A stretch of DNA of 63,281 bases, filler included, from Rhabdomonas costata (GCA_019059605.1; 42 parts of 42 records of this genome joined end to end with filler, not necessarily neighbours in it), one strand, 5' to 3'; positions 13,647 through 46,198 are shown, counted from the first letter of the whole stretch. Made by a program: numbers and translations. The notes: generated from the sequence alone by a model not told the origin.

Positions 13647-14277
13647 GCTGCCCGACGCCGTGGTCTTCGATGCCCTGGAGGCGATCCGCAGCCGGTCCAC
13701 AATGGGTGGCGCCGAGGAGGAAGACGTGGCCTACGAGGAGTTCGTGGAGGTGTTCAAGATGCTGACTGCGCGCCAGGAAGCCCTGCTTTGCGCGGGCCAG
13801 GAGAATCCCGAAAAGGCGCTTGCGACGTTTTTTATCCGTTTTTGGGTTATAGTTTGGAAAACGTGTGGCGGACTTCCAAATAGCGCTCGGCGAACAGTAG
13901 CATCCGGTTGCCATCAAGACTTCTCGGTGCTCCGATTACCGTGGCTTCAGGAAGCTCGGAATGAACTGATTGATCCGCAGTTTGGGGTATGCCTGCCATA
14001 CCCTGCGATAGTGGTGCAAGGTAACCCTACCGCTGTCCCGTACTGGAATCCTTTTTCCTACGTTTTGCGAAAGCACCCCTCACCTCTGGCTTTGTTTTTG
14101 TTCCCTGTGAGCCCTTCCGAGGTTCCCTCCTCAGGGGGAACGGTTGGTTGCTGTGTGGCCTGTGCCCCACAGGTGGGCAGTGGGCGCCGGTGCTGCAGCT
14201 GGGTGGGGTCTGCTTTCCGTGCAGTCCGAGAGGCTGCCGGCCGTCTGCGGCGGGAGCGGCGCCACGGCGCCAACGAG
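13647..14277 (+). CDS. Unknown protein with EF-hand-like segment, two putative exons
   Basis: GC3-rich coding 13647 to ~13767 (EEEDVAYEEFVEVFKML) and exon 14173-14277 (CACAG acceptor, GTATGA donor). The first donor is ambiguous. Confidence 0.5.
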
Positions 14278-15489
14278 GTATGACGAACACTTGAGCGACG
14301 GCTTGATGTGTTTGCTTGGCCCGTCCCTTGTTGCCAGCCCAGTTAAACCCATCCCCTTCATCCCCTCCTTCTCAGGTGAGAGTGAGGTTAGAATTGCGTT
14401 CCCAGTTCCAGGGGGGTCCCTCCCTCCTCTGAGCTGTGCTGATTTGGCAGTGGCCGCGAAACATCCCAACACTCCTCTCCTTTCCTATCTCAGCTACTTC
14501 CTTCTATGCGCTTTACCCTGGCCAAGAGCACAAGAGTGGTCGGTAGTTACCGTGGCTTTACTTGACTCTCTTACGCGCATTGTCCCGTGTCGCACGAGCT
14601 TCTGTGAACCCTGAAAACCCACATTACTCTGCTTGGGGGATACTACGTATCTAACCGTCTTTGCGGCTTACTGCTGCTTCCCGTTTCCGCGTTTTCGAGG
14701 ATGGACCTGCCGCGGTATGCCACTTAAGCTGTTATATACGTTCATGTCCAAGCTCTATCTCGACTGGGACTGCATTGGGAAAAAAAGAGTGTGAAGTGTG
14801 CCAGGTAACTCAGATTGCGGAATGCCACCGCCACCGCCACCGCCTTCACCACCACCACACACATCCCGCTGTCCCTCCTTCAGTCATAGAATTTCCATTT
14901 CGGACCTTCGCCCTGCTACTCTCCGCGGTGCGAGGGCCCAAGTAGGGATGCTGTCATCGCTCTCTCTCTCTCTCTCTCTTTCCCAAAAGCGCGGATGCGA
15001 CCTTTCCCAACAGCCCAGCCCACTCACCTCCCCCCAACCAACCCACACACACCCAACACNNNNNNNNNNNNNNNNNNNNNNNNNNNNNNNNNNNNNNNNN
15101 NNNTTAATTAATTAANNNNNNNNNNNNNNNNNNNNNNNNNNNNNNNNNNNNNNNNNNNNGGTCATTATAACCCGTGGTGACTATCGTTGGAACCCGTTGG
15201 ACATCATTGGCAGCCAAAGTTAAAAACATATTACCAGTGCGTCCCAATAAACGCAGCAGCATTCAAAACAATCTCTTGACAACTCGTAAAGAGACAAGAA
15301 GAGATGAAAGTTAGCCAGGCACTGGCGCGGTCTCCGTAACGAATCATTCAAAACGAATGAGTGAGTGCGCTTGGTTCCACGCAGCCCGAATCCAAGAGCC
15401 TGGATTACCGTCGTCGGAGGAGGGGAAGATGTTAGACAAGCGGGGGAAAGGACTCACATGGTAATTCCACATCAAAGGAGAGTGTTAAC

Positions 15490-16291
15490 CTGTGAGGACG
15501 CAGCTGTGGTAGGCTCCGCAGGCCACGGCGAGGATGGGCAGCCCATGCAGGGCCTGCACCGGGGTGGGTTCGAGCAGGTTCTTGGGCTCGGGGTGCCCCA
15601 GTTGACCATCCTGCCCGTTCCCAAAGCTGTACACCTCATTGTCTGAACAGCCCCCCATTCACACAAGCAATCTTGCAAAGTTGAAACTGCAAAACACCCG
15701 CATGCAAGTCTGCTAGCCGTGGGAGCGTCCCTCGTTGTCAAGCGGAAAAAGCAACAACAACAGCAGCATCCCAGCATCCACATCGCGGCATTCATCTCAG
15801 AGAGCTGTTGAGGAAGTTGCCGTACACACTGTCTAATACACTGTCTGCTCTGGTTCTGGCTATGGGGCAGGCGCTCCAGTTGAAGCTTGAACAGAAAAAC
15901 AATGGTATGGTACACCTTTCACCATTGCACCTAACACGACGTCACAACGGAAGAGCGGCATATACAATATACTACTACGAGACTAAGAAGGCATCCGTTC
16001 GAAGAGTGAAGCGTGGTCGGCCGCATATGCCAACATCCCTTCTTAAGCCACCTCAGGAACCTGCACACAGGACTCCCACTCCCATTCACAGGAACACTCC
16101 CAACCCATTCACACACACAGGCACTCACGCCACATACTCGGTCCAGACGAGGGAGTGAAAGGCCCCCGCCGCGGCGTGCGCAACAGAGCGCCCGCACAGC
16201 AGGGGCACCGCCGTGGGCATCTCGCGGGGCCGAAGATCCCCCAGCCCCAGCTGCCCGTCACTGTTCCCGCCAAAGCTGTACAGCTCATCGT
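15490..16291 (-). CDS. RCC1-repeat protein, two repeat-sized exons
   Basis: 16291 to ~16138: DDELYSFGGNSDGQLGLGD..P..V..L....AAGAFHSLVWT. 15642-15490: NEVYSFGNGQDGQLGH..P.PV..L...AVACGAYHSCVLT. Confidence 0.9.
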
Positions 16292-16987
16292 CTGCGCGTG
16301 AGCACGGGAGCAGGACACACGCACATCGCCATTGCGCAGGGTGAACACATTGGAGTTGCAAGGCGGCTGCCTCGATCCGATTCAGCGATCCTTCTGTGGT
16401 TGCCAAAGAAGATGCGAAGGCAAGGCCGGTGCTTTTCTTTTAGATATTATTTTTTCTGCATATTTCTCCAACAAACAAATTAGAAGTTCAATAATGCTGA
16501 GGAGAAACTCCCAAAACTAGTTGGAATCACACCACAAGATGTCAACAAACACACCACATCCACAAAAAACCNNNNNNNNNNNNNNNNNNNNNNNNNNNNN
16601 NNNNNNNNNNNNNNNTTAATTAATTAANNNNNNNNNNNNNNNNNNNNNNNNNNNNNNNNNNNNNNNNNNNNGGGGTGTGGGTAGGTGAGCAAACAGAAGT
16701 TCGCTCCTGCTGTGAATAGAGTTGGCTGCGTGCAGCTCAGCCTGCCGATTTTCAACGTCAAAGTTTTTCAACGTCAACGATTTTCAACGATTTTCAGTGT
16801 CAAAACCCCTGTTGACCCAATACGAAAACCCAGCTCACCCCTTTCGTATGTCATTGATATACAAGCGAAACCCGAGGTAGGGAAAATTGTTCATGACCTC
16901 AGGTTCACTTCACTTCATTGCGCCACCCAAGAAGTGCACTCGGACTTCCTTCAGCCTTTCTCTCGATTTGCTTCGCACAGAGGGCAC

Positions 16988-18087
16988 CAGCTGAGAAGAA
17001 GAAGCCCCACTGTGTTGAGCACGGGCTCCCAGAAGTCCCCCAGCTGAGCAACAAAGGTTCCGGTGACCCAAATGCCGCTTTCCGCGGTCATTACATCTGC
17101 ACAAAGAGGAAAATAAAATGGATAAAGGATATTGCGGACAGATAATTATGGCATCAACGTCCACAACGAGGCCATTCCAGTCGATACTATTGGGTCTGTT
17201 AGTGAACTCGAGGAATAACCCACCCCCACCCCACTGACCACTCGTAATAAAATCATGACAAGAAACCAGGCGAGAGCAGAAAAAAAAAGGAAATGCTTAG
17301 AAGGCAGGCAAACGAAAACGGGATGGAAAGATGCTGCATAAGAGCAACAGGGACCTCCTCCCCCCCATCCACGTGTGTGCATCGTGGCTGCGCATACAGA
17401 GCGCAAGCACTAACACACACACACAAAAAAAAAGCAAACCCGAGAAGCCCTCCATTGCGCCTGGGCGGATCAAGCAGTGGTGAAGGTTCTCGTCGCAAGC
17501 GTGGTACACCGCGCTGGAGGCGGCAGAGAGGAGGTACACCAAGCTGTGACCGTACATCTGAGGTGAAGGCACACACAGAGGCGACGATGAAGAAAGAAGT
17601 GTCGTTGCTTTGGTGAACTGATGCATTGGTGTAGGGCACGCGTGAGAAACGTGCACTCGTTGTGTGAGTCAGAGGGGTATTGAGCTTTACGTACTTAAGA
17701 CAAAGTACATTTAATTCACATGCAAACAAAGAATCCGCTGCCCACTGCTTGTGGTGAGTTCTTCGGCCGACGCGGTGTCTGTAGTCTGCTTTTGTTGGAA
17801 GTCTGCTGAGACGGGCTACAGGCTAAAATCCAAATCGATGCCCTTCTGACCATATTCCCTTCACCAACAAACCCTGTTCGATTAACTTTTTCCGGATTCT
17901 GGGCGCACAACAACAGCATACTATGTTCGCACTCGTATTCTCCAGGCCTGCAGAAGTACATGGCCGTCCTCAACAGCAGCAAAAACTGTGCACGGGAGGT
18001 GCGGCGGAGTGGGTCGAAAAAGGGTCACACCGCCCTGCGCCAGCTGAAAGCAATCGCGGGCACGAAGGCCAAGTTGGATAGCACCAA
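16988..18087 (-). CDS. TMEM8/PGAP6 (myomaker superfamily) membrane protein, three exons
   Basis: Exon 18087-18031 LSNLAFVPAIAFSWRRA; exon 17557-17450 MYGHSLVY...SAVYHACDE..C; exon 17043-16988 LGDFW. The SN.AF / YHACD / DF motifs are in family order. Confidence 0.85.
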
Positions 18088-18189
18088 NNNNNNNNNNNNN
18101 NNNNNNNNNNNNNNNNNNNNNNNNNNNNNNNTTAATTAATTAANNNNNNNNNNNNNNNNNNNNNNNNNNNNNNNNNNNNNNNNNNNNGT

Positions 18190-18775
18190 TGGTGGGGAAT
18201 GTGAGCGGAACAGGTTTCGGGCATAGGCAAGTCCAGAAATCCAGAATGGGGAATCCTCAAGAGAGGGAGGTGGGGACAACGAAGAAACGGTGGAGGGTGG
18301 GGTTCCAAAGCTGTGTTGGCGACCGGCCTGGGCTGCCCAGCGCTGCGGGGGGGCCGTAGGCCGGAGTAGGCCCCCCGGGGGAGAGTTTTGATAGTATTGT
18401 TGGCCTGGGAAGGGGTCCCGGTTGTGTCGGACAGGGTGTCCACGACCGGTCCTGGGGGAACAGCATCAGGAGGGTTCTCCAAGATGATCGCACGCAGGGC
18501 GGCGCAAGCAGATTGAGCGAGCTGTTGCTGGTCGTCAGTTAGCGTGAAGGTTCCGAAGGCTTTCAGCAAACGCACAAAGGGCTGAAGGTGGTCGGGTACG
18601 TGATGATCCCCCGCCGGAGAGCATCGGGAGTCAGGGTTTCAGGGAGGGCCGGGGCACCCAAAGAAAAGGAGGCGAACTGCGCCTGTAGGTGTTGGAGTTG
18701 CCCAGCAAGTGAAGCCACTTGCTGGGATTATTGGGTTAACTGGATCATGAGAGTTTGGACCAGCAGGGTCCATGT
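18190..18775 (-). pseudogene. Frameshifted proline-rich ORF, possibly a decayed mobile-element ORF
   Basis: Consecutive ORF pieces in different frames (MDPAGPNS.. / ETLTPDALRRG.. / VRLLKAFGTF..) with no obvious introns. No family recognised. Confidence 0.2.
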
Positions 18776-19711
18776 GTTGGTGGGAATGTGGGAGAGGGAA
18801 GCGAGAGGGCAAAAAGGTGGCCACAAAAATATAAATGATTGCTGGAATTTGTGTGGAGTGAGATAGTGTGAAATGGGTTTGTGTTTTGACTGGGGTTGCG
18901 CAGTTGGGGTCGGAAACAGCCGTTATACCTCACAGATGATGGTCGGCTCAGGCAGAGACCTCAGTGAATACGCTGTTTTCGTATGTGGTTGGAGATGGTG
19001 GTTTGTGAAGAAGGAAGCCTGCATTATTGAATCCGTCTTTTGGAAGCCCGCAAGGGCTTCATGTATCACTCGGTCCGCATCCTTTGAAGGCATCATCGAC
19101 ACCAACACGAGCATCAACACTTCGGGTTTGATGAACACAAAAGAGGCCCCCTAATGTACACCAAGTCCAAAGAATCGTAGCAGTGGTAAAACCAAAATAA
19201 CAAAAGCAAAGCAAAGAGCCCCTCTGAGCTAGGACCGGTGACCAAGGGTCTGGAAACAGAAAGACAACACACTTCGTCGGTGGCAAGCCGAAAGGGACAT
19301 CAGCCAACTCTGAGAAAGCACGCCTGGGCTGAAACGTGACTCACGCACACTTCACATAAAACGCTTGACATTAGCACTTCTCTCCCATTACCTTGCCCTG
19401 GGACCGAATGATCAACAATGCAGAAACCCGGACAACCTGAGAACGGCCAGAAGGGCACCCGATAAGACGCGAAAACAACCACTGCAGGCTTTAAAGGAAG
19501 TTCACGGGCAATGCACAGATCCGCATAGCGTTCCTTTGGTGAACCTAGAACGAAACGTGGCACTGCCACGAAGAGGTGTAGTATTCGCGCTCCTGAGGCA
19601 CATNNNNNNNNNNNNNNNNNNNNNNNNNNNNNNNNNNNNNNNNNNNNTTAATTAATTAANNNNNNNNNNNNNNNNNNNNNNNNNNNNNNNNNNNNNNNNN
19701 NNNAGGTTTGG

Positions 19712-21080
19712 GTAGTCGCAGCCGTAGTTCCCCACCAGAACAGAAGCGGTGTTGATTCCCGTCCGGAACCTGCAGCGAAAGAGGACTCTATTTTTGCAAA
19801 GGACGCTGAGAAGACGACACCAATAAGCTAACACAGGGCCTGCGTCGCAGACGTCGCCGGGGAATCCGTCGCCGTGCAGTTCATCGGGGCAGAGGTCTCG
19901 TCACAAAGGTCAGGGGACAGCCTTTCGGGATACCTCAAACCAGAGAGATCCAAATACCGTTACGTTCCACCAACACACCTGACTTCTGGCAGGCCTGCCA
20001 ACATCCATTTGGTGCTCAGCTTCATCATGGAGGCCTGCATCCCAAGAGCCGCCCGGCACGCCGCGCCCTGGTGACCTTGCAGCCGAGTGGGCACGTTCCA
20101 CAGCGCCATGATGCAATCCCCGATAAACTGGACCCCCACCAACCCACCAGACACACAAAAAAAAACTCCAAACTCACAGAGGGATAAAACCTAAACTGGA
20201 AAATTAAAACGTCGGCCTGGCTTCAGACTTGGTCAACCGAGATCTCTCATACGTTGCCGTTAAGTGCCGTGGGTGGTGAGGGAGCAATTCCAGGGAACAA
20301 CCCGAAGCCCAGTTGCAGCCGAGATTTCCGAGAGATTTCATCAAAAGATACTGTCAGTCGAACCCAAATTGTATTGGCCCTTTATCCATGTAGAACAGTC
20401 ATGCAGATGCCCGGGAAAACGGGTAGAGGCTTCAACCGTGGGGTGAGGGTGTATGAATCGGCTACGCAGCGCCCACTCTACATAGAAAATCCCCGGGCCT
20501 GCTTAGGCGTTGCCCGCTAGAAAAGAATGCGGAGTCATAATTATAAAATCCATTGAAATTCGTATCTGAATGAAGAACTTATTGAAGATCCGAAGAATGC
20601 TTCTTTTACCTTGTCCAGAATCCCGCTTGTGGCGACAATCTCCTCGCACATCGCCTCGAAGAAGTCCGCCATCAGCCCCACCAGATCCTCAGATGGAACG
20701 GTCTCGCATAGAGAAGTAAAGCCTGGAAAGAAAAACCAGTGATCTCAAATCCGACAAAATTCTGACCCTAGCTCACATGTATTCTTGTGTCAGTCGACAT
20801 CAGTAAAAATCAGGGAACCCTGCCAAAACGATGCATCATCGAGGAGAGAGGAAAAACGGAATCCCATCATTGACGCAAGCCAACAAAAAAGGCGAATCCG
20901 ATGAAAATAATGCAATCATAGAGAAGACAAGACAAAAAGGATCCCTCGCCCATACCAACAATGTCGGTAAACATCAGGGTCACCGTCCTCCAAGTCATCA
21001 AATTCTTCTGGCTCATTGCCCCACTCAGCATCATCTTCACCACATCCCGAGGCACGAACTTCGCAAAAGCTTCCAACCCT
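19712..21080 (-). CDS. Class III adenylate cyclase catalytic domain, four exons
   Basis: Exons 21080-20956 (VTLMFTDIVG), 20722-20610 (FTSL..ILDK), 20127-19979 (FIGDCIMALWN) and 19769 to ~19712 (RTGINT..VLVGNYG). All GT-AG and in frame; substrate-specifying Lys present. Confidence 0.95.
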
Positions 21081-22170
21081 CTGATCGAGACAACAAAACA
21101 ACACCAACCNNNNNNNNNNNNNNNNNNNNNNNNNNNNNNNNNNNNNNNNNNNNTTAATTAATTAANNNNNNNNNNNNNNNNNNNNNNNNNNNNNNNNNNN
21201 NNNNNNNNNGGTGGGGGGTGAAGAAACCCCACCCCACCAGCATAGAGCAGGCGCCTAAAGTCACAGACGCCCTCAGTTCTGGAGGGAACGGGGTTTCTTC
21301 ACCCACTTCACCCACTTCACTTCCCTGATAAGCGGGTCTGGGAGAAAAGCTGGGGGTTAAAGTCCTAACCAAGAGCATAATGGCACTCAACAAAGAGCAC
21401 ACAGCAATCAACCAGCTGCTCATAGAACTCATAGAGCTCAAAGTACTCATAGAAGCACAGTACAGTGTTACGCACTGGCTCTTGCATTGAATTTCGCGGC
21501 ATTAATAATAGTCTTCTGGAATATAACATAACATTGACAACATTTGAGGTATGAAGCGAAACGTGGGGATTGGAGCAAATTTGCAAGCAGCGACTGTGAC
21601 TGGAAAGAGATCACTGAAGCCAAGCCCCTTTAACCCACCACCAGGAAATGAATTCTCCCAGCAACTTTGACCCCCTCCTCCCTCTTTCCCCGAAAGCGAA
21701 GCAGGAATTCCGAGAGTCCGACATGTACATGAACTACAAAGGTCTGACGCCGGAAAATTGTGCTCACCATTCCGGCCATCAAATCAACCCTGAATCCGGC
21801 GCAAAACCCACAACGAAACACCGTACATCAGAAAAGACGCGGTATACGCACATACCTATGGGTATATACACACACGACGAGAGGTTGCTGAAGCTGTTGA
21901 TTACCACCCCTTATGTCAGCACAAATCTGCAGAAAGTTTCCCACTGGCTACAGGAGCACGCCAAGATGCTGGGCAGCGGCAAAACAAAAAAGAAGACGAC
22001 AGAGCGCAACCATGTGGACCGACGATCACACTTGAAAAAGCACTCGAGAAACCATGTTAGCTCAGAGGCTAGGCGGAGTGAATCCGTGAACCATGTTCGG
22101 AAGTTCAGATGGGGGGCAAGCTCATTTTGCCTCACTCGCCCATTTACGCTGTTTGCTCAAACGCGGTCAC

Positions 22171-22620
22171 CTCCTCTGTGATGGGCTGCTCCTTCGAAGC
22201 TGGCTTCGCATCGAAATCATCATATAGGGCGGCGGACTCGTAGACGTCCGCAGCCACCGCCTCGCGGTTGTCCAGGCCCCCAGCCATCCCCTGCAGCAGC
22301 ACCGCCCGCTCTGCGTTGGAGCTGACGAAGTACCGCTCTGCAATGCCGTTGCGCTCCTGCTCCGCATTCACAGCAGCCACCCATTGGGCGAAGGTCAGGA
22401 CCTCCACATTGCGGGCCGTGGCGGTGTCATGGGCGGTCTGAGCCCACCGAGGAGAGCCTGTTGCCTCTAAGAAGGGACGGGTGCAGCACTCCAGGGCGGC
22501 AGCAAGGAGGGAGATTTTCGCCTGCTTTCGGTGGGTCTTCATCCGCTCGTACATCACCTTAGACTCCTCCTCCATGGCATCCTGGGCGTCCAGTGCAGCT
22601 TGTTCCCCGGCGTGCCCAAA
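22171..22620 (-). CDS. Hypothetical protein exon
   Basis: About 150 open GC3-rich codons ending at a GAG|GTGACC donor. No family recognised. Confidence 0.6.
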
Positions 22621-23385
22621 CCACCNNNNNNNNNNNNNNNNNNNNNNNNNNNNNNNNNNNNNNNNNNNNTTAATTAATTAANNNNNNNNNNNNNNNNNNN
22701 NNNNNNNNNNNNNNNNNNNNNNNNNGTGGGGTGTTGTGAAGTAGAGACTGGCAAAGTTGCGCGTTGGGAAGCGAGGGAAGGGAGAGAGGAGGGGGTTTGC
22801 GATGACTGGGTTTGCCCCGCCCAACGATCCAGCGGGACGCAGCACAGAGGTGCCAGCAAATTTCGGTGTTATTCGCCTTTTCTGGATCTGGGTTCGTGTA
22901 AACAAGCCCCCAGTAGTAACCATGTTATTACGATGGCCTTGGCGTCGAGCATCCCGCGGCGTTACAGCCAACGAAAATGCTAGCCAAACCACAACGTATT
23001 GGCTGTCGAAAAGTGTTCAACTTGTTTGTCGGGCTGCTGTAGCCAGTACTTGGCGCAACAACAACGTCTTGGTAAGGAAAAGCACTAGCGCAGAAAAATC
23101 CACAAGAAGCGAGAAGGCAGCACTTGACCAGCCGCACTTTCAATACCAAAAGACATTACACACATTTATTTTCGAAAAAAAAACTCCAGTCCTGCTCTTA
23201 AACACAGCTCCAAACAAAATCACGTCATCCAAGAAGGACACAGGCACAAGTTCCTGTGGATTAGCAGGTACTATCTCGTGCGTGTTTTGCACAGCAGTAG
23301 AATGTAAAGCCCATGCTTGCCCGCCGCTTCAAACGGCCACGAGGAGGAAGAAAGGAGAATAGGGGGGACGGCCCCCTCACTCCAC

Positions 23386-23598
23386 TCAGTAATTGCTGAA
23401 CCGAGCGCTCAAGTATCCGAGCCCTCCCCGCCGGCTGGGCCGGACCGGCGGTGGACGTGTGGCGGGGGAAGGGGTGCCCTGAAACGCCGCCTGGGGCCTC
23501 CCACGCCGCTCCTGCACGGTCGACGCCCGGGTGACTTCCCGGCGCCGGTGGGTCTCCATTTCCATCCTCACGCGGTTATTCTCTTGCCGCTCGTCGAC
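23386..23598 (-). CDS. Putative terminal exon, unknown protein
   Basis: TTGACAG acceptor followed by a GC-rich open frame VDERQENNRVRMEME... ending at TGA. Confidence 0.4.
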   Translation of the reverse strand, partial: VDERQENNRVRMEMETHRRREVTRASTVQERRGRPQAAFQGTPSPATRPPPVRPSRRGGLGYLSARFSNY

Positions 23599-24085
23599 CT
23601 GTCAAGAGGCAACCCAGAAGCACGTTTTTTGTGAAAGTATCAACAGATCATAGAATTTGGCAGTAGTTGTGGTGTGTGCAATCGCAACAGAATAATCGAA
23701 CGCACCGACACAAGTAATTACCGCCGAAATGAAACGATTATCACACTATCCACCGCTTGCCTCAAGAACTATACTATACTGCTACTTGCACCAGTTGATT
23801 GCAAGTTTGAAGTAGAGCATTCGTGGGCAGTCGAAATCGCATTTGCGATGCCCCCAAGAAACAGAAACATACCATAGGGCCCCTTCGGGGACCAAACCCC
23901 CTTGGTGGCGTCGCGAACGTGGCGCTGTTGTCACGAGGTGCTCTGAAAACAGCACAACAAGGAGCGGAAGATAGGATGGCCAAAAACAAAAAACTGAAAA
24001 TTTCGGCGCACGTGCATTATGGGGACCCCCATAAATGCAACCTGCTTCGTTTTCCCCTACTGTTCCAATTCTACACAATCGGACA

Positions 24086-24133
24086 GGTGGAAACCCTGGT
24101 GGAAACCCTGGTGGAAAAGCTTGGTGGAAACCC
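24086..24133. repeat. Short tandem repeat GGTGGAAACCCT, ~4 copies
   Basis: Visible 12-13 nt units near the contig end. Confidence 0.8.
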
Positions 24134-25148
24134 ACCCAACCNNNNNNNNNNNNNNNNNNNNNNNNNNNNNNNNNNNNNNNNNNNNTTAATTAATTAANNN
24201 NNNNNNNNNNNNNNNNNNNNNNNNNNNNNNNNNNNNNNNNNTGTTGTGGGTGGACGTTGTCGCTCTTTCCTCAGCCGATGCTGATACTGACCGGCAGAGC
24301 AGCTCTACTTCTGGCGATGCAGGTTTCCATTCACTGCCCGATGAAAAGTGGGGGAGTGGGGTGGAATGGAGAGAGGAATATTTGGGTTCTCATACTCCCT
24401 CTACCTTTCGGCTGCCTTCTTCATCGTTGAATAGACCCCTTCACTCTGCTTGTTTCCGGTCGCTTCTTCTTTTCCCAAAGAGAATTTTAAGTGTTATTGG
24501 CTGTTTTTTTTCGTGTTCCTCCTTGAACGTCATCCTTTTATGATGCAGGCGCAATGGTTGTTTTTTTGTGGGTGTTGGGAATGACAGAGCTTCACCGCCT
24601 GGCCGTTGCTGTTCACCAGTTTGAGGCCGACAGGTTTCGAGCTCCCGCTCCCGCTCCCCATCCATTCGCACTCACACGTATGCCGCTCAAGAACGTCACA
24701 GGTTGTTTCCTGCTTCACGAGTTTGATCGAGTAATAGTCTCACCCACACGATTTGTATTTTCAATTGGTTTAATGGTTTAGCAGTGTCTTCCAGTGATGA
24801 ATGTCTTCCGAAGTATTCTTTCTCATTCCTGTCACTTTTCATCGCCGCTTGTGCTGCTGTTTTGCTGTTTTGGGCTGTTTTTATGATGCCTTCACTGTAT
24901 CCCCTGTTCCGCCACCTTGTCGCTGCTGCTCTGCTTGCAGGTCTTTTCCCAAAGAGGCGCATCGTGACCTGTGCGACGCAGTTGTCCTCTTGCGAAGCGG
25001 TGCAGTGTTCTGTTCTGAAAGGGGAGTGGGCGGGGAACCGAAACGGTTTCTGTGTGAGCTCTTTATTTCGTGCCTCCACTTCTGGAATGGAATCACATGC
25101 ATGCTGAGGATGCGAGTGATTGAGTCAAAAACACTAGGGTCTATGGAA

Positions 25149-30302: not shown

Positions 30303-31460
30303 CCACACACACACGCGGTTCCTTGTCTTGAAGGTGCGTCTCCATCAACGTTATCTCCCTCCCTGTTTCTTCTCTTTTTGCAATTCGGTGGGCCCTCCAC
30401 ATGCTGCCTACGCAATAATAACTCCTTCTCAGTAAACTGCAATATTCTGGGAACCCGAGCAAAGTCACCGAAATCCATCAGATGTCCGCCGCTACAACAA
30501 CGTCAAACAAACCGTTTCATAATTCCATAACCTCAATGCAGTTCTTCGCCCCACCCCCAAGGACGAGACCCAATGCAACCGAAAAGGGTAACTGGACTGC
30601 TCCTAAGCTCTCACATTCGAAGCATTAGCCCCCTTTTCTATAAATCACACACGTTTTTTTTTTTCCAAAACCATATCCCCGAGGACCACAACTTTCTGAA
30701 ACCTGCCTGAAACCTACCTTTCAAGGATTTTTTTAACTGGGGAGGGGGGAGGCAAAGCTGAGCATTCGCCAATGGAACCCTGGGCGAGTCACCTCACTAC
30801 ATACTGGCAAAGGATGGAGGAGGCGATTCGAAAATCCCGGTGGAGGAAGGCCTTCACCGCGCTGGAGTACAGCTCCGCCGCTCTGGCCTCCGAGGGGTCC
30901 ACCTCAGAAGTGAAGCCCAGAACTTCATACACCTCCACGCCCTGGGTCTTGCCCTTCACCGCGACGCGGCCCAGGAGCCGGCACACAAAGGTGGCATCCA
31001 CGTCATCACTGTGATAGACCTGTCGCGCGTGAGACGTCCAAGAAGCATATAACCATCACAGTGCTATGTAGCACATTTCACAGTGCTCAACCAACTCCCG
31101 GCATGACGTCCATCCGAACTTCATCTGAACAACCGATCAGAAGATCGCGCTTTCTTTGGCGCCATTTAATCGCGAAAAAACAGTAGAAATTCGTACATGG
31201 TACATGAATCGGCATGCAACAAAAAAAGCACACTGCGAACTTCGAAAGATGGCACCGCCCTCTTACCTGAGCGGAGATCATCACGGAAGTTCCGTACTTC
31301 TTGTTGAGCCCCTCCAGACGGGAGGCCAAGTTGACGGGGTCTCCTGGGTGCGTAGGCAGCATGTGGAGGGCCCACCGAATTGCAAAAAGAGAAGAAACAG
31401 GGAGGGAGATAACGTTGATGGAGACGCACCTTCAGGACAAGGAACCGCGTGTGTGTGTGG
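30303..31460. repeat. 112-bp inverted repeat at both contig ends (1 mismatch)
   Basis: 30303-30414 is the reverse complement of 31349-31460. Confidence 0.95.
30793..31343 (-). CDS. Class III adenylate/guanylate cyclase, C-terminal catalytic exons
   Basis: Exon 31343-31267 GDPVNLASRLEGLNKKYGTSVMIS; exon 31019-30793 CRLLGRVAVKGKTQGVEVYEV. Confidence 0.93.
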
Positions 31461-35882: not shown

Positions 35883-37627
35883 GCACCCCCTCATTTCTCC
35901 TTCCTCCACCCCCATCACACACCATACACCATGCACGGCCCACTTTCTCTCTGGACGTTTTAAAAGAAGCCACCAAGCAGCAGTTGTAAGCCGGCCAACT
36001 CGCCTTTCCNNNNNNNNNNNNNNNNNNNNNNNNNNNNNNNNNNNNNNNNNNNNTTAATTAATTAANNNNNNNNNNNNNNNNNNNNNNNNNNNNNNNNNNN
36101 NNNNNNNNNGTGTGGGTGTGTTTGGTTGGGGGGGGTGAATGAGCAGGGAGTGTATGCGGATCCGCGCTTAGGGTAGTTGTTGGAACTGCGCCAGGGAGGA
36201 GGAAAGGAAAAGGGGCTTTTGGAAACCTGGGTTTTGGTTATCCCTGTTAATGACATCGAGATAATATGGTTGCCCTCAGCAGTGCTTGTTGGTGGTGAAA
36301 CTCCTTGTGCAGAAGTAAGTCCCATCTCTGCACGGGTTGTAATTTTCCCTCCCACAAGCAGCTTCGCCTCCTGCTGGTCCGTGGCCCAACTCTACGCTCT
36401 TCAGATCCCTCCTAACACTACTCCATTCAAGCCATAGTTCCCCTGTGCATGATCTCAGCTCACCCATATGGGCCATAACCGCCACGCAGGCGTACTATTG
36501 AACCCCTAACCCTTTCCACCCCAGCCAATGTCGGAGCCTCCCCATAGTCAGTCAAAAGGAACCAGGCGCCCGTTTTTCAGATTTTAGAAAATTTCCGCTT
36601 GCCCCGTTGATGCTGCAATTGTGTACTTGGGTGTGATTTCTTCTCTTGTGTGGTAAGGCAGATTTCGCATCTTCATGCTGCAAAGTAATTTCCTCTATTT
36701 ACAAATGCTCCTTGAGTTTGATTGTTCGTGCGAGCAGCGATAATTTCAAGGGAAATTTTCAAGGTCGCTTAGTCGCTCTTTGGAACCCTTTGGAGTTCTG
36801 TTTCTTCTTTCTTCGATCTCTCCCTTTCACCGCTCTGCCTCAGAAGGAAAGGAACCCACAGGGCTGCCCATCTCAGGCTCGGTCGCCCCATAAGCCGCCG
36901 GGTATTCTCTCCAGATGCCTGCACATATGCAGCCACCTGTTTATCAAATTCAGCAACTGGAAGGCTCTCCAACAAGCGTGTGAGGGTTTTTTCGGTATAC
37001 AACTACCCTGTAGAATATAGTCTCAGTTCCCTCTTTTGCCCCCCTCCCAAACGTCCCTTTTTCCACTTCAAAAACTTATCAGCCGATTTGCAAATGGAAT
37101 TTCGCTTCCCTCCCCTTCTATCGTTCCTTTCCCAATGCACAGTGGACGTGGGGCTAGACACTGGAATTGGAGCATGCCCCCATGCGTGTTATGTATTATG
37201 CGGACTGTTGCATGTTATGGATTTGTACGGAGGTGGTTTCACTGGAGGGGGTGATGTTGGACCCCACCCCAGCGGGGGTGGGCAATGGGTCGGCGGTCGT
37301 CAGCAAGTTAAGGGCTGGCCATGCTCCCACCGCATCCTCTGTGGGTGACTTGCGTGTTTTGGTCTCAGAGCCCGACTTATCCCAGAGCCAGAGCAGGAAC
37401 CGACTCCCACTGTAGCATTGAGCCTTTCGTTATGGTTTTTGAACTATAGTGCGGGATACAGGCTGTATAATTGAGGGGATTTCGCTTTCTCAGAAGGCTT
37501 GCACACCACCCCAGGACAACAGTAAGCNNNNNNNNNNNNNNNNNNNNNNNNNNNNNNNNNNNNNNNNNNNNTTAATTAATTAANNNNNNNNNNNNNNNNN
37601 NNNNNNNNNNNNNNNNNNNNNNNNNNN

Positions 37628-37909
37628 CCCCCGTACCACAGCGAGAGGGAAAACGCCCCGAAGATAAGGAACTGCGAGAACCCAAAGGCCAGGCCTCCGG
37701 TGATCCTGGAGGGCAAAGGGCGGAACGAAGAATGGACAGGGAAGGGGAAACGCAACTCCGGAAGCCGCGAGCTGTGCAATCTAAAGCAATCTGAAGATTC
37801 TAAGGGATGAAAAACCTCAAATACTGAAGGTCATGCCGGACGAAAGAGCGCACAAAAAAGCTATTACAAGCCGACCGGCTACTTCCACAAGTTGGGTGTG
37901 TTTCTCCCA

Positions 37910-37949
<40 letters not shown>

Positions 37950-38857
37950 ACGCGTTTGTGGTCAAATGGGTGCACCAATGGTGAATCTATCCACAGTTCT
38001 ACTCTCTGCCAAAGACACTGAAGATACACCTGCCACGAGGAATTCTTAATGAATCAGCCCGACCATTGTGTGTGAGCACTGCACGGGAGTTCTGAAATGT
38101 CTACACATTAAGGTAGGAGGAAACCCTCAACCGAGCTCATCAGCCACTCTTTGAATTAGGCGAATCATCAGAATGGTTCCAGGCGATCCCTCAGTAAGGT
38201 ACTTCGTTTGAGAGCCAGCCCTCCACACAAGATTTTTTGCTCGCTGACCGCCCGCTGCATTGTACGTCCATGTGCGGGAGCACGCTTCCCCCGAAACACG
38301 TTCCCCGTGCTTATTTACGACACCACCGCACCACATATACTCATGCAACACATAGAGACCCTTTCTTAACCGCGGTTTTTGCCGTCCGCTTCAGGATGGC
38401 ATGGTACTCCGTCACCTTGACCGAGGCCAAGTTGAAGGCCAACACGGTGCGAATGGCAGACACGGTCTCCGTGGCCACATTACCCGCCTTGGCGTACTCC
38501 GTGCCATCGCTGGCACTCAGCCCAATTATGAACTTCATCTCAGCTAGCCCTGCAAGAGCAAATTGCTTGTTCACAACACCGAGGAGAGACGCCGAATACT
38601 GGCGAAACAAAGTCTCAACAAAATCAGAAAAATGGAAGAGACGTTTTCCAGGCAACAAAGACTACGTTTGCACACACGTACCCATGCCTGAAGAAAGGAC
38701 GCCCCAACTCACTACAATCTCCAGAAGACACCTCCGAAAGTCACTGCAGGCACCGCAGAGAGGGTGACCAGCGCGAGCTTCCACTGAGTGATGAACGCAA
38801 TGATCAGCCCCGCGAAGAGGCACACCGCCGCCTGGAATTGAGTGGCCAGCTGGGGTC
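37628..38857 (-). CDS. ABCB (MDR/P-glycoprotein) transporter, transmembrane-domain exons
   Basis: Exons 38857-38732 (GLIIAF...WKLALVTL), 38549-38360 (YAKAG.VA.E.VSAIRTV.AF) and 37705-37628 (G.AFGFSQF..F....L.LWYG) join in frame with GT-AG boundaries. Confidence 0.95.
37912..37948. repeat. (CA)n microsatellite in ABCB intron
   Basis: Seen directly. Confidence 0.95.
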
Positions 38858-39659
38858 CTGCGAGCAAACCGCCCAAAATATTCACACAACCACCTGAAAA
38901 GCCCCAACCTATCTCCATAAGAAAAAGGTAGCGACATGGAACACACACACATACGACGCCTTCTCGCTGGGAAAAAAGACAAGAGCATCAAGGAATTCAA
39001 GAGTTCTTCAGACGCAGTACTTTCGGTTTCAAACCACTACAGGGGNNNNNNNNNNNNNNNNNNNNNNNNNNNNNNNNNNNNNNNNNNNNTTAATTAATTA
39101 ANNNNNNNNNNNNNNNNNNNNNNNNNNNNNNNNNNNNNNNNNNNNTTTTGGTGTTGTTGGTTTTCACCTTTTGTTGTTACCGAGGTGCCATAAAAGAACC
39201 GCAGCAGAGCCGCAGGCCAGAGCCGATCGGAAACCTGGAGGGCCCGGCAGAGTATAAAGAGAGGTTGTAGAGTTTGCAGAGTGTGTGCTTGGTGGAACGC
39301 GGCCGAGTTAAACATGACATGCTGCGTGTGTAGTTGTGTTCCCATTCCACACCCTTTTCTTTGTTGGAAGATCCGGTCAAGGCATAAGTGGCGAGACCCG
39401 CCCAGCTGAACCCCTACAACAACCCATAATGACTGAGCCCTACGGCCTGAAAATTCGTTGCAGAAGGAAGCGAGCTCATGGTGGTGAATGTTCCACATGG
39501 TGCGGCGTCTCTTCCATAGTTGATTGCATATGTTGCTATTTTCACAGTGGAGGTGGAGAATGTCACTCCGACTAAGCAGGACCAGCGAACCATAGCTGGG
39601 GCTCAGGATAATAAGTGGAAAATCAAAAGAAAGTTGCGAGATTCTCCTCGGAAGGAAGT

Positions 39660-40545
39660 TGAGAAGTTAATTAAGGAGGTGGACAACAGCATTTGTGGCC
39701 ACATTTGTGCGGTGTTATCAACACCTACAGAGATCGAGAAGTTAAATCAAGAATCTGCGCATATCTTTCCAGAGTCGGTTCCAGGAGGATTACCACATTA
39801 AATGAGGACGGACCACAGAATTGATCTGAATCCAGAAAGTAATGTACCAGCCCAGTGGCTGTACCAAATGTCCCATGTGGAAGATGGGGAATTGCGGAAG
39901 CAACTGAAAAGTTCCAGAGTTTAATGGTAAGTCCAGGCTGTGGATTACAGACAGCTAAATGGCATCACATATGCTTACTCTTTACCCCAAATTCACGAGA
40001 TGATTGATAATAAAGTGTTTTTCCAAAATAGATTTGCACGTGTGATTCCATAAGATCCGCATATATCCAGAGCATGTGAAGAGAACGGCATTCAAGACAA
40101 AGTACGGTTCATTCCAATTCAGATTCAAGCCGTTTGTGTTGTGCAATGCCACGGCAACATTTCACAGAGACATGGACTTCGTTATTGAGGATCTGCGAGA
40201 GATACTAAAGGTGCGTACGTGGACTCTCGTCCATACGGAAACGTTGTAAGCCCATGTGGAAGCGTTGAGTGTTTTGTACCAGAGGTTGAATAAATGGAAG
40301 CTTTTTGCAGATCCATAGGAGTTTATGTTTGCACAGCCAGAAGTCACGTATTGTGGATTTATTGTGTGCATAAATTGAAATAAGCCACAACCGATGAAAC
40401 TTGTGGCCGTGTATACGTGTAAATGGCCGCAGTTGCGGAACCCTACAGAGATGAAGATGTTTCTCGAGTCATGTTGGTTTTACCGGATATTTATGGAAGA
40501 TTACGCCATAGTCGCAGCACGCTGACGGATCTAGTGAATAAAAAG
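39660..40545 (+). mobile_element. Decayed Ty3/Gypsy LTR-retrotransposon pol (reverse transcriptase region)
   Basis: Motifs in order across frameshifts and stops: IFPE..P.GLP, HRIDL, DYRQLN, LP.I.EMID, SKIDL, TAFKTKYG, PF.LCNA.ATF, YVD, F...EV.Y.G.IV. Confidence 0.9.
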
Positions 40546-41710
40546 AAAAACCAACAACCNNNNNNNNNNNNNNNNNNNNNNNNNNNNNNNNNNNNNNNNN
40601 NNNTTAATTAATTAANNNNNNNNNNNNNNNNNNNNNNNNNNNNNNNNNNNNNNNNNNNNTTTTTGTTGGTCCGTCGGGGAGGAGTACGCACGCGTCTCCC
40701 CTCGATGTTGTAGCTTAGCATCTTCTCTCTTCTCTCTTCTCGATAGAGCGCTTGCCAGCTCTGCGTGTGGTATTCTTTGCTTTGAATTTGCTCTTTTCTT
40801 CGCTCGTGGTTCCATCGGGCACTGGCAGGGTTCCCTGATCTCTCTCTTTCTTCTGGAATTGCGACGTATGGGGGACCTTGTGAGCTCTTGAGTTTTCAAC
40901 ATTACGTGTGAATTGTAGTTACCGTGGTGGTGCCAAGCTTTTGGTCTTCGGAAGTAGTGGGAGGCGGTATTCTCTGCTTGGCACGATAACCCAAAGGCAT
41001 AGCAGATGGGCTGAGCATATTCAATGGCGTTAGAGACAGCTATGCTGGCGATACCGCATCACATTCCCTACATATCCTGCCGGTGTATGGGGGAGTCCGA
41101 TGCCCGATTTACGCTTTTTTATGTTCTTCTTCTTACGCTACAAACCACATTCTAAACTCGGCTTTGGCGACTTAGTCCATCAGAGAGCTTGATTAGTGTA
41201 GTAATGGGTCGGTGGTTGGAAGTGTAGGGTGGCGTGGCTGCGCGTTACTCTTCACACTGAACCGGACACGTGCACGTGGAAGCCCTTCAAGTCCATTAAC
41301 GGGCTCTGCGCTAATTTCGGCTTGGGCGTTTTCCATTTTCTACGATATAATATTCTCGGAGAGAAAAAAACAGCCCTCCACCCCAATCCAGCAGCCCCAC
41401 CTTTGTACTCTTCCAACACCTCTGTTTTTGTGGTTTCCTCTCCCTTTACACTGCTTTTTGGTCGCTTGTGTTGGCTGGTGTTCTCGCGTGGGTCTCAGTT
41501 CGGCTCGGTGTTCTCTCTCGTGCGGTTGGCGTGCTTGCGTGTCCGGGTTCAAATATGTAACATTGTCATTCGTGGATCTGCGCACACGTTCGCTGGTTCT
41601 AGAAATTGCCAAGAGCAGTACCCATAAGCCCGGTGACAGGAAAGTTTCGGTATTGCTCAGCACCTTTTCTGAGAAGGGAGGAAAAGCATGTGCTCCCCCA
41701 TTCTGGGCGA

Positions 41711-41811
41711 GAGATCCTCCGTCGCTGTCGATGCGGGGGCGGTGGAGTCGGCGTTCCGGGAGATGGCACCCCAGGGGGAGCTGCCCGTGGAGTTGTTGCT
41801 AGATCTTCTCC
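41711..41811 (+). CDS. Putative short exon (EF-hand-like)
   Basis: VESAFREMAPQGELPVELLLDLLR ends at a CG|GTAAGG donor. Acceptor uncertain. Confidence 0.35.
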
Positions 41812-42258
41812 GGTAAGGCTTCAGACTTCTCGTGCCCACTGTCTGGTTACTCTTCTGAGTCTAACCCAAACGCTGATACGGTAGACCAAGAATGCCAAAA
41901 AGAGCCATTCATGTGCGTATATTTCTCACACTTTAAGCAATGTGTGTAGAGGCGACCCTCAGGTTTGAACACGTGATTTGCAAGTGTCCATGCGAAAGAG
42001 TTGCAGGACATCCTCAGAGCATTCCGGTTGTAGCCTGCATTGCCCGTTCCCAACAACCACCAACCACACCCAACACNNNNNNNNNNNNNNNNNNNNNNNN
42101 NNNNNNNNNNNNNNNNNNNNTTAATTAATTAANNNNNNNNNNNNNNNNNNNNNNNNNNNNNNNNNNNNNNNNNNNNTTTTGGGCTGCGGTACCGGGATGG
42201 GTTCACCAAGCACCCCGAAAGCAAAGATTCTAACCTTCATATCGCAGCTTACTCATCG

Positions 42259-42260
<2 letters not shown>

Positions 42261-42298
<38 letters not shown>

Positions 42299-42332
42299 TC
42301 ACTCACTCACTCACTCACTCGCTCGCTCGCTC
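42261..42332. repeat. Compound microsatellite (AC)n(ACTC)n(GCTC)n
   Basis: Seen directly. Confidence 0.95.
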
Positions 42333-43735
42333 ACCCTCACTCTCGCTCACACCCACGCGTGAGCACGTGTGCTGCGAAAGATACCGCGGAGGAAAAAGGG
42401 CGGGGAGGCGAAGGGGACTAGCGTGAGGTGGTGCAGAGGGAAAAAAGAGAGATTGGAGATGGGCCCAGTACCTCTTACTTTCGGGAAAGGAATGAGTGCA
42501 TCACTATTCCCGGGTCAGATTTCAAGCAGACAACCACCGCCAAATCCCTAATTTGCTACCTCTGGGCTTCAAAAGTCCTGAACCCAAAGTTGAGCATATC
42601 AATCCAGAGACACACATCCACACAGACGCACACAACACACACCAAACAGAAAAAAAGCCTCCTAAGACATCGCGCACTACAATGGGGAAACTCCCCACTC
42701 CCAATCCGAGAAACGCTTATCCCTGCCGCAAGCACACATAAACCTCACCAATTCTCAATGGCTGACGACGAAACACAACCCGAAACATCAGATGCAGGTT
42801 CCAACCGTGACGCCCGTGACGCCACCACAACTCACCAGCAGCTCACCAAGACAAGCATCCCCTCCCCCAAAAAAAAAGAGCACGACGAAAAGCAGTGATC
42901 ACTCCCAACACGACAACTGGGACATGTTCACGTGTTCGTGAGTGTGTGCGCGGATGTGTTCGTGGGGTTGGGACGTAGAAAAATAGAAATTACGAAAACC
43001 TCACAAGTCCAGTGTTCAAAATCCGGCGCACACAACAGCACAACAGCACACAACAATAGAAAAGAGATCAGTGGGCCAAAGTCGAACCCAGCAATGAGAA
43101 CAAAATGTGAAGCATCGCGACGAGGAAGCAGCGAGATAGGCATTCGTGTTCTGGAGTTCTGGAGGGCTGCAAGCAATAGAGGTACTCAAACAAGCAACCC
43201 ACAAACCGAAGAATAAAGAGGAAGCAAGAACAATGAAATCTCTCGTGTGCCGCGACCTGGCTGGCGACGGAACGAACCGCCAACCGGCCTTGTCTGCGCA
43301 TACTGAGGAGGAAGAGGACTGTGCCACAGTGCCCGACAATCTCTTGTTGTCTTGTGCTCACGGATGACCCCCCACCGGTCCCATCCGCAGGCCACCGCCT
43401 ATGCACCTTGGCCCTTCAGAAATGTCGTCAGCAGCACCAAGACACGAAGTCCTGACAGCCAGGATGATGTCCCCTTGTATGATTCTACCCTCACGTGTTC
43501 ACGCATACACAATAATTGCAGGGGTGCGGCATCGGTACAAGTGGAGCCTGTGCGGTGCGCGGAAGCCCCCCCCAACCCCACACACACCCAACACNNNNNN
43601 NNNNNNNNNNNNNNNNNNNNNNNNNNNNNNNNNNNNNNTTAATTAATTAANNNNNNNNNNNNNNNNNNNNNNNNNNNNNNNNNNNNNNNNNNNNGTGGGG
43701 GGGGTGAACGGCATACTTCCTAAATTTTCTTCCAG

Positions 43736-44894
43736 TGCCCGAAGGATTTGTTCCTGAGGACAGGGTGGACGCATACCTCCTCCACCGTCCCCTGAACGTT
43801 TTGCCTCTGTCATTTTATTCAGAGTGTTGTCATCCGTCCCGTCCCCAGATTTCTGCTTTCTTTCCATTAGACGAGTGTGCTCCCAACCCGACGTTCCCCA
43901 CGGTTCCCGGCCAGGTGACGACGTGCGTGAACGGGTATTGTGACCAGCTCTATGGGAAGTGCGTCTGCACTGACGGCTGGACGGGAAAGTTTTGTCAGGT
44001 GTCTTTGAATGTGTGTGCCTTCCTAAATCCAGTAAGCTGAGCGGACGGTTGAGTCGGTTGAGGCGGCAAACACACACACATACACACACATGAGCCTCTG
44101 CCACCGTGCTGCACTGCACTGCTAAAAGCTGGTCTTGAAACGACGTTTTTGCTTGGGCTAATGACTAGTTTACGCTACTGCAGAAATCAAAAGTACCCAT
44201 TTCAAACCCATCCCTCACCACTTCGGACCTTCGAACTCCTCTTAAGCCAAACCTCAAACCGAGAGGAAACAAATCAAGCATTAATGCCAGAACAATACAA
44301 CAACATGTGTAACAGGTTGGTCACCAGAACACCTGTGCAGCATTTCCAGGTCCGTCCGAAGTCCGAAACCACGTAGGATGACTGCCCGCTCGAGTTTCCC
44401 AAAAGCGATCCTCCAAAGTGAAAACTTCCCATCACTGGCAGTTACAAGCCCCAGAATCGGGCATCGAACATCCGAAGCATGGAGGCAATTTTGTGGGAGT
44501 TCGGTGGAAAGGAGTCAAAGTAAGTTACATCCCAAAACCCAGAATTACGTAAGTCACGGCAAGGCGACTTTTTTTCTACTTTGCCCGGTGTTGGGGTGGT
44601 TTTCCCCAGTCAGGTCTTTCTTGCGCACGTTAACTTTTCCCATACAGGCCCATTGGATGCATACTGGATGTTGATGTTGTACTCAACTGACAAAGACAGC
44701 CAGTGGCACAAAGGGCAACGTTGTTCCCAACTCATTTTCAACTCACCCCCTTTTTTTTTCGTTTCAGATCCCACCTGGGGCAACAGCGCAGGGCACCTCT
44801 GGGTTCCAGAAGTATCTTCTAACCTTCAGCAACGGGGTGAAGACCCAACTCACGGTGACCTACTACGGCGGGGGCTACGGCGGAGGCTCCTGTG
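43736..44894 (+). CDS. EGF-like domain followed by start of an expansin/DPBB-like domain
   Basis: Exon 43871-43998 CVNGYCDQLYGKCVCTDGWTGKFC (EGF). Exon 44768-44894 ends TYYGGGYGGGSCG. A small upstream exon starts at 43736. Confidence 0.7.
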
Positions 44895-45691
44895 GTGTGT
44901 GGCGCGAGCTATGTTGATGATGGCTTTCAAACAAGCAACCCCTTCGCTGAATTCCTTGCTCTCGGAAAAGCTCTCTCGGGGTCACTCGGTGGTGATGTCC
45001 CTCACTTTTCGTTTGCTGGCGCCTGTCTTCCAGGTAGTTTGTTGGAGGGGTGAGCGGGTGAATGGGTGTTGATGGGAAAGGTTTTGGAGACTTTTGCCCC
45101 CCCCCACCCCANNNNNNNNNNNNNNNNNNNNNNNNNNNNNNNNNNNNNNNNNNNNTTAATTAATTAANNNNNNNNNNNNNNNNNNNNNNNNNNNNNNNNN
45201 NNNNNNNNNNNTGTGGTTTGTGCTCAACAAACATACATGCCAAGAAAAACGCAAACCACCTTTTTTTTCTCTCCTTTCAGTTTTTTTTTCTCCTTTCAGC
45301 GGTGCTGCGCTGTGCTGTTTACTGTTTGCCCACTTCGAACGCAGAACGAGTATGATTTTCTGGAGCCTGCCTCTGAAGCAAAAAGTGTTTGTTGCTGATT
45401 TTTCCCTCCCAAGGTCCTTTGCACTCAAAATATCACGTTATTAAAATACAAAAAATACAAGCCTGCCACTTGCCTATGAGACTCTTGTTCTCTGCGTCCA
45501 CAGTTGGTCGGTGTTACTCCATGTTTTGTCAAGACAAGGCGTCCCGATTACATTTACGTGCGGCGCTAAGAACAAAAAAAATAGCAGAACCGTTTACAAC
45601 GTTTACAAGCGGGGAGCTGCAACGACCCGAAATAAGCTGGTGAGTTCAAAGAGAAAACTGAATCAGCTCCTGCTGAAAAAATCACACACAC

Positions 45692-46198
45692 CATTCTTGA
45701 TGAGAAGATACTGCTTTTCTTTGGGAAGGTGCGGCACGCGCTTGCTTGTGTCGGCACTCATCCTGCACAAAAGTGCCCATAATAAAGTGCCTCCAATGAA
45801 TTCCAAGTCAGTTGCAATAAGCACATAGAGACGCGAATACGGTTTGTCCGATGAGATGCCGTTCTCATTCTCTATCAATTGAATCAGGGGTTCCTCTATG
45901 TCCACTGCAAATGCGATTAAGTGTCGAAGAAATCGATTTAAGCTGATTAAAGCTGGAATGAATGGAATAAAAGCAAACGCACCTTGTCAAGAAGGGTGAA
46001 AAAACGCGGTGGAGGGGGGTGGAGGGGAGGCGCATTCCAAGTCCAGGCAGGCGTCATCTGCACAAGAACATCTCCAGCGGCCACGAACTCCTCGGGGGTC
46101 AGGACACCCTTCTCTGCAAACTCGCTCTTCTTCTGAACCGGAGTGAAATACTCAGCGACGTCCTTGTACCTCTGAAACAGGCGGTTTTTAAGGCTCAT
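45692..46198 (-). CDS. ATG3: Autophagy E2-like enzyme Atg3, first two exons
   Basis: Exon 46198-46038 [35 protein letters not shown]...P.W.W; exon 45762-45692 [23 protein letters not shown]. Confidence 0.95.

Follow-up and report, generated by a model that had tools for sequence, protein, structure and literature searches.

Two introns departing from GT at the 5′ splice site in gene fragments of Rhabdomonas costata

Does the splicing machinery of the heterotrophic euglenid Rhabdomonas costata accept any base at the second position (+2) of an intron? The question is raised by a stretch of 63,281 nucleotides (nt), here called the window, in which 42 separate contigs of 1161-1418 base pairs (bp) have been joined artificially, and for which an original prediction, based on junctions spliced by hand, had proposed a relaxed 5′ splice site with GT, GC, GA and GG donors. 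Two real exceptions at +2 are found, namely a GA-AG intron in the ATG3 gene and a GC-AG intron in a gene on contig 10. They lie in what we take to be nuclear gene fragments of R. costata or a near-identical organism, with introns that are mainly conventional GT-AG introns. We prefer this modest reading to a GN-AG rule, in which N is any base, and give the explanation as a whole a probability of roughly 0.6. The data are too few for a genome-wide rule of that kind, and none of them speaks for G at +2.

Two junctions joined in transcript-derived proteins

The two introns are defined by two proteins, P0001 (328 amino acids; EukProt RCo046362) and P0014 (100 amino acids; EukProt RCo047198), both filed under EP00906 Rhabdomonas costata. 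They came up in homologue searches with ATG3 exon 1 and with the first exon of contig 10, respectively, each 100% identical over the matched part. A dinoflagellate origin of the window was rejected, as the species label is that of a euglenid. The proteins of this species were predicted from its transcriptome, and its genome draft came without gene prediction (PMC8219788). P0001 and P0014 are therefore taken as transcript-level evidence. In each of them the exons on either side of the intron are joined, which establishes the positions of both junctions and their dinucleotides (Table 1).

P0001 carries the domain PF03987 (Autophagy_act_C) and aligns with proteins named ATG3, which identifies the host gene as ATG3; the ATG3 exons of the window, run singly, gave no Pfam match. 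By tblastn, residues 1-54 of P0001 align with 46198..46037, and residues 55-77 with 45761..45693, with zero mismatches. The exon 2 segment as aligned by tblastn extends over residues 55-80 at 92% identity, and its mismatches all come after residue 77, on the far side of the second intron's GT donor. The codon of W54 is split, with two of its bases closing exon 1 (at 46038) and the third being the first base after the acceptor. Thus P0001 joins the exons across 46037..45763 exactly as had been proposed, and the claim that ATG3 needs a GA donor is borne out. No GT lies near the end of exon 1, and the GT further downstream is out of phase for this acceptor. The intron must nevertheless be removed, because the frame of exon 1 meets a stop codon within it. 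A micro-exon or a non-AG acceptor after exon 2 was considered and rejected, as the next exon lies beyond the contig.

The spacing across the joined ATG3 junction equals that of five of the six aligned ATG3 homologues, the sixth having one residue more. A metagenome scan with P0001 found one locus (L001), which shares 43% identity over the C-terminal part only and is uninformative on an intron near the N-terminus. The exact borders of the intron are blurred by GGA, a 3-nt direct repeat found at each junction, which leaves three other registers, GG..CA, AA..GG and AT..GA. The GA..AG register alone keeps an AG acceptor, and none of the four is GT-AG.

In the gene on contig 10, the codon for K38 of P0014 ends at 13815 and that for V39 starts at 14173. 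Protein and contig agree without a difference over 66 residues, 38 from exon 1 and then 28 at the start of exon 2; the first codon aligned in the tblastn segment of residues 38-73 lies inside the intron. The original prediction was right here about the type of donor and wrong about its place: a GC donor is used, but P0014 reads through the proposed site at 13768 and splices 48 nt further on, at 13816. This is the only one located of the two or three GC donors that had been announced for the window.

Table 1. Features of the window discussed in the text, with positions counted from its first nucleotide
Feature	Position	Strand	Remarks
Contig 10 exon 1 (P0014 residues 1-38)	13702..13815	+	P0014 100% over query residues 20-56; tblastn
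Contig 10 intron 1, GC-AG, 357 nt	13816..14172	+	P0014 joins K38/V39; 5′ GCGCTT, C-rich tract and CAG
Contig 10 exon 2	14173..14277	+	tblastn P0014 residues 38-73, 88.9%; GT donor at 14278
RCC1 repeat exon B	15642..15490	-	contig 11; Pfam RCC1
RCC1-like intron (approximate limits)	15643..16138	-	between repeat exons A and B; Pfam RCC1 on both exons
RCC1 repeat exon A	16291..about 16139	-	contig 11; Pfam RCC1
TMEM8-like proposed intron 2, GT-AG, 343 nt	17097..17439	-	in-frame GT-AG solution
TMEM8-like (DUF3522) intron 1, GT-AG, 473 nt	17558..18030	-	Pfam profile continues from 27 to 28 across the junction
Adenylate/guanylate-cyclase-like intron, GT-AG	20723..20955	-	one of the 11 GT-AG introns of the baseline; motif continuity read by eye
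ABC-transporter intron, GT-AG, 182 nt	38550..38731	-	control case; Pfam ABC_membrane on both exons
GT donor of ATG3 intron 2	45690..45691	-	P0001 leaves the contig after residue 77; next exon off the contig
ATG3 exon 2	45692..45762	-	P0001 residues 55-77, identical
ATG3 intron 1, GA-AG, 275 nt	45763..46037	-	P0001 joins residues 54/55; 5′ GAATGC, 3′ CAG
ATG3 exon 1	46038..46198	-	contig 31 (45212-46626); start codon at 46198; tblastn P0001 residues 1-54, 100%

Donors and acceptors across the window

How unusual these two introns are within the window depends on the remaining junctions. Nineteen donors were placed in 13 contigs, of which 17 are GT, one is GC and one is GA; the 13 complete introns among them comprise 11 GT-AG introns, the GC-AG intron and the GA-AG intron. 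Four of the donors are supported by transcript-derived proteins, three by the continuity of a Pfam profile, and the rest by motif reading or by the ends of reading frames. The two exceptions were examined because they, or a site close by, had been flagged beforehand.

Acceptors are uniform. CAG closes 12 of the 13 complete introns, both exceptions included, so that the expectation of ordinary pyrimidine-rich CAG acceptors was correct. The share of pyrimidines at positions -18..-4 is 0.53 and 0.60 in the two exceptions, as compared with 0.53-0.80 in the GT-AG introns, and a G directly follows the acceptor AG in both non-GT introns and in six of the 11 GT-AG introns. On the donor side, the letters seen most often in 15 GT donors are G (six) or A (five) at +3, T (ten) at +4 and G (11) at +5. 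The GA donor of ATG3 reads A, T and G at these three positions, letters that rank second at +3 and first at +4 and +5; the GC donor of contig 10 reads G, C and T and agrees with the GT donors at +3 only.

The ABC-transporter gene served as a control. When its reading frame is extended to the limit, a GA donor appears at 38719; this candidate was rejected, as the fit is better with a GT donor lying 12 nt upstream, which gives the spacing expected of ABCB proteins. Hand-splicing by maximal frame extension thus makes false non-GT donors, a practical warning for work of this kind.

The GG donor claimed for the TMEM8-like gene was not reproduced. This gene lies on the minus strand of contig 12 and matches the profile PF12036 at positions 10-27 (E 0.053) and 28-89 (E 0.00063), both matches being under the curated cut-off. 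Its first junction is assigned as GT-AG because position 27 of the profile meets position 28 across it. A search for homologues of exon 2 found no transcript-derived protein, and Pfam gave no match on exon 3, which is assigned tentatively to the gene from motifs of the family. In-frame GT-AG solutions exist for both junctions placed in this gene, and none that requires GG was found.

For the RCC1-like gene it had been held that no in-frame GT-AG solution exists, which is incorrect. There are four (donor/acceptor 16148/15635, 16137/15627, 16133/15635 and 16128/15627), each of which removes part of the repeat: all bypass the strongest acceptor, use weaker acceptors within the repeat and delete conserved residues. 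Exon B is in phase 1 both at its start, just after the strong acceptor (last intron base 15643), and at its end, where a GT donor follows at 15489. With the acceptor at 15643, the in-frame donors are all non-GT (GG, AG, AT, TG, CG and GA), and the GA candidate, at 16126, is followed by G, T and G at +3 to +5. An error of one base in the contig would also yield a perfect GT donor where exon B predicts one.

These results bear directly on the possibility that the 5′ splice site is relaxed throughout the genome, with any base accepted at +2, so that donors with GT, GC, GA or GG make up a single class, conventional-like and apart from the stem-forming introns of euglenids. Such a system would account for GA and GC donors that occur with conventional acceptors and without a stem, for the in-frame GA at 16126 with its G, T and G that the strongest RCC1 acceptor would accommodate, and for the 1164 introns predicted in R. 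costata that are not GT(GC)/AG (PMC8219788). It agrees poorly with the prevalence of GT among the placed donors, with the failure to reproduce any GG donor, with the false GA call that frame extension produced in the ABC gene, and with the occurrence of GT/AG in 29 of 29 complete introns of six R. costata housekeeping genes (PMC8219788). On balance we regard genome-wide relaxation as unlikely. The proposal of any base at +2 rests on one intron with A and one with C, the case of G was not reproduced, and the window does not support a step to all four bases. An Rfam scan of the window returned 0 families, and no U1 gene was found there.

Intron type and the quality of the contigs

Nonconventional introns of Euglena are characterised by pairing of positions +4..+6 with -8..-6, mostly as CAG/CTG (PMC4770533), and are also marked by CCAGG and CCTG motifs and by termini that can fold (PMC11170887). 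In the GA-AG register of the ATG3 intron, +4..+6 and -8..-6 are unpaired and CAG/CTG is absent, and the contig 10 intron, read by eye, has no pairing of these positions in any register. CCAGG (+3..+7) and CCTG (-9..-6) were found in neither intron. For the fold test of PMC11170887, ten bases from each intron end were linked by seven U. The terminal folds reached -3.7 kcal/mol for the GA intron and -2.7 kcal/mol for the GC intron, and four GT-AG controls gave -1.0 to -2.9 kcal/mol. Among 3000 randomly drawn pairs of the form G.../...AG, the value of -3.7 kcal/mol was reached by 23%. Folding of the ends is therefore at chance level, and the earlier observation that CAG/CTG terminal pairing is absent holds for both introns, in the case of ATG3 for the GA-AG register. 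As for the U12 type, the 5′ ends GAATGC and GCGCTT do not resemble the 5′ box of minor introns.

Most likely, both introns would be excised by the ordinary U2-type spliceosome acting on a weakened 5′ site. Removal of this type is favoured because both introns have pyrimidine-rich tracts followed by CAG, neither has a stem above chance, and the GA donor keeps common letters at +3, +4 and +5.

A number of points weigh against this reading. The GA donor has been seen in one case only, and the GC donor fits the pattern of the GT donors poorly at +4 and +5. Any GT-AG solution that fitted was accepted in the baseline, which is thus blind to non-GT donors wherever a GT could serve instead. Comparison was made at the level of protein and not of mRNA, so that an expressed allele or paralogue could carry GT at the same place; we infer that the contigs represent the expressed copies, and that the EukProt set is the transcriptome-derived set. 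P0014 departs from contig 10 at three of the ten residues that close exon 2 (14248-14277) and then diverges entirely, and may come from a near-identical paralogue or allele, from a chimeric transcript, or from sequence errors; its mismatches show the existence of near-identical copies or of errors. The contigs themselves seem to have been amplified, with artefacts. Finally, the AT..GA register of the ATG3 intron pairs +2..+6 with -8..-4 in a 5-bp helix, which spans the positions that define nonconventional introns and pairs +4..+6 with -8..-6 as C-G, G-U and C-G.

This helix bears on whether the ATG3 intron could be a euglenid nonconventional or intermediate intron that is removed without the spliceosome, its GA-AG appearance being an accident of choosing one register out of four. 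The host organism is a euglenid, the intron retains a purine at its 5′ end, the 3-nt repeat blurs its borders, a trait of the E. gracilis 'ss-variant' class (PMC11170887), and the AT..GA helix covers the defining positions +4..+6 and -8..-6 (PMC4770533). However, with four registers to choose from the helix is not beyond chance, its fold being matched by nearly a quarter of the random pairs; moreover, the helix does not pair CAG with CTG, the intron has neither CCAGG at +3..+7 nor CCTG at -9..-6, and its 3′ end is like that of the GT-AG introns in the window. We therefore consider non-spliceosomal removal of the ATG3 intron doubtful, and retain the U2-type interpretation for both introns.

The fidelity of the contigs has to be considered as well. 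Their ends are skewed in composition: G+T averages 0.70 over the first 20 nt and is at least 0.8 in 17 of the 42 contigs, and C+A averages 0.68 over the last 20 nt and is at least 0.8 in nine of the 42, as against a figure of 0.49 in mid-contig. These ends look like remnants of degenerate primers for whole-genome amplification, and base-level errors and chimeras must be allowed for because of this resemblance. The genomic DNA of the R. costata draft was indeed whole-genome amplified, and its G+C content is 51.6% (PMC8219788). Adjacent contigs in the window are separated by 44 N, a 12-nt linker with stop codons in every frame, and another 44 N (for example at 1417-1516), and they are ordered roughly with the longest first, a single 1161-bp contig being the exception.

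Individual contigs show further peculiarities. Contig 21 ends in a 112-nt inverted repeat (30303-30414 and 31349-31460; 99% complementary), probably an amplification or assembly chimera and not biology. On the plus strand of contig 30, at about 44885-44900, a coding-like frame slips by one base within a short TG run and resumes in another frame, which is probably an assembly slippage error, unless the frame truly shifts. This contig also carries an EGF-like exon (Pfam EGF_2, E 4e-5); a homologue search with it gave no longer homologue. In contig 3, the intron after the chaperonin exon contains a near-perfect 48-nt hairpin (3582-3682; 92% complementary, with a 5-nt loop), and a unit of about 85 nt apparently occurs twice in tandem at about 3060-3250.

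The genes found on the contigs, which contain introns, include ATG3, the RCC1-repeat gene, the DUF3522 (TMEM8-like) gene, the ABC transporter, a glycosyltransferase, a chaperonin subunit and an ankyrin/F-box protein. The last of these is encoded on the minus strand of contig 18 (25758-26651) by a long single exon with several ankyrin repeats (Ank_2, E 1e-44) and a weak F-box-like match before them, and was the sole named match when ten more reading frames of contigs 13-25 were run against Pfam. From motifs read by eye, we take a lipase, a leucine-rich-repeat protein and four cyclase fragments to be present as well. The cyclase pieces, presumably of class III adenylate/guanylate cyclases, lie on contigs 14, 21, 33 and 40 (20956-21050, 30900-31340, 49522-49655 and 58842-59022); the one cyclase-like exon that was run against Pfam gave no match. 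Four cyclase-bearing contigs suggest a large family of cyclase genes, as in other euglenozoans.

With contigs of this kind, the A at +2 of the ATG3 intron could be an error of amplification or assembly, or the contig could be an unexpressed allele or paralogue of a gene whose expressed copy has GT. The primer-like contig ends (G/T-rich at the 5′ side, C/A-rich at the 3′ side), the 112-nt terminal inverted repeat in one contig, the likely frameshift in the TG run of contig 30, the mismatches of P0014 near one exon end, and the amplification of the genomic DNA (PMC8219788) are all in keeping with such an origin. Yet an error would have had to strike exactly the +2 position of the donor while the 77 flanking codons equal the protein, which is improbable for any one site, and the GC case constitutes a second, independent exception. 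An artefact or a silent copy thus appears quite improbable.

Comparison with known intron systems

Euglenids are the only lineage known in which conventional and non-spliceosomal nuclear introns occur together, and how one kind gives rise to the other has yet to be explained. In this respect, a GA-AG intron whose acceptor is conventional and whose ends form no stem would be a useful test case, as it could tell whether the euglenid spliceosome tolerates a changed +2 or whether such introns are already on the other pathway. The present yield is a single well-supported GA-AG example and one ordinary GC-AG intron, in a species for which non-canonical borders have already been published. More speculatively, Rhabdomonas, and perhaps euglenids at large, might possess a conventional-like class of introns that admits A or C at +2, perhaps even any base there, and stands between GT-AG and stem-forming introns; such a class would have been hidden by the practice of labelling all non-GT(GC)/AG introns 'nonconventional'.

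With the conventional introns of euglenids (PMC11170887, PMC8219788) the introns of the window share their main features. At +3, +4 and +5 the GT donors prefer G or A, T and G, respectively, which comes near the conventional 5′ consensus GTGTG of E. gracilis (PMC11170887), a pyrimidine-rich tract leads to the AG, and GC-AG occurs as a minority variant here too. Euglenids commonly have GC-AG introns, a normal variant: in E. gracilis, 659 GC-AG introns were counted against 11,527 GT-AG introns (PMC11170887). The contig 10 intron, with its GC start, conforms to the GT or GC definition of conventional introns. It differs from the GC-AG introns of E. gracilis in lacking the G at +5 that is prominent there (PMC11170887). 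ATG3 intron 1 does not conform, since the A at +2 places it outside the GT(GC)/AG definition used in both studies (PMC11170887, PMC8219788).

The nonconventional and intermediate introns of euglenids (PMC4770533, PMC11170887, PMC12501133) resemble the ATG3 intron in lineage, in having a non-canonical border and in the short repeat at the junctions. The ATG3 intron is unlike them in its lack of CAG/CTG pairing in the GA-AG register and of their motifs, in folding at the level of chance, and in its conventional acceptor. A precedent is the survey of R. costata itself, in which non-GT(GC)/AG introns are reported from the same species: beside the 1164 predicted ones, 105 contigs are supported by RNA reads, and seven introns were curated as putative nonconventional introns (PMC8219788). 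The available main text of that survey holds no table of dinucleotides and names neither GA-AG nor ATG3, and its Tables S2-S6 may list the ATG3 intron. In the available portions of the literature on euglenid introns, supplementary tables aside, no mention of GA-AG as such was found, nor was any literature on euglenids found that names GA-AG, GG-AG, GC-AG and introns together.

Parallels to the GA donor come from other eukaryotes. The GA-AG introns of the animals Oikopleura dioica and Eurytemora affinis (PMC7072748) share with the ATG3 intron a GA donor followed by A, a normal AG acceptor and a spliceosomal appearance. They differ from it in numbering thousands of RNA-supported cases and in having a conserved AG upstream of the GA, whereas the ATG3 intron is a single case with TG upstream. 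In the dinoflagellate Symbiodinium (PMC4083563), GC and GA donors are likewise used beside GT, and are frequent, and a G often follows the acceptor AG, as it does in both exceptions described here; GC is nearly as frequent as GT in that genome, in contrast to the euglenid window, where 17 of 19 donors are GT.

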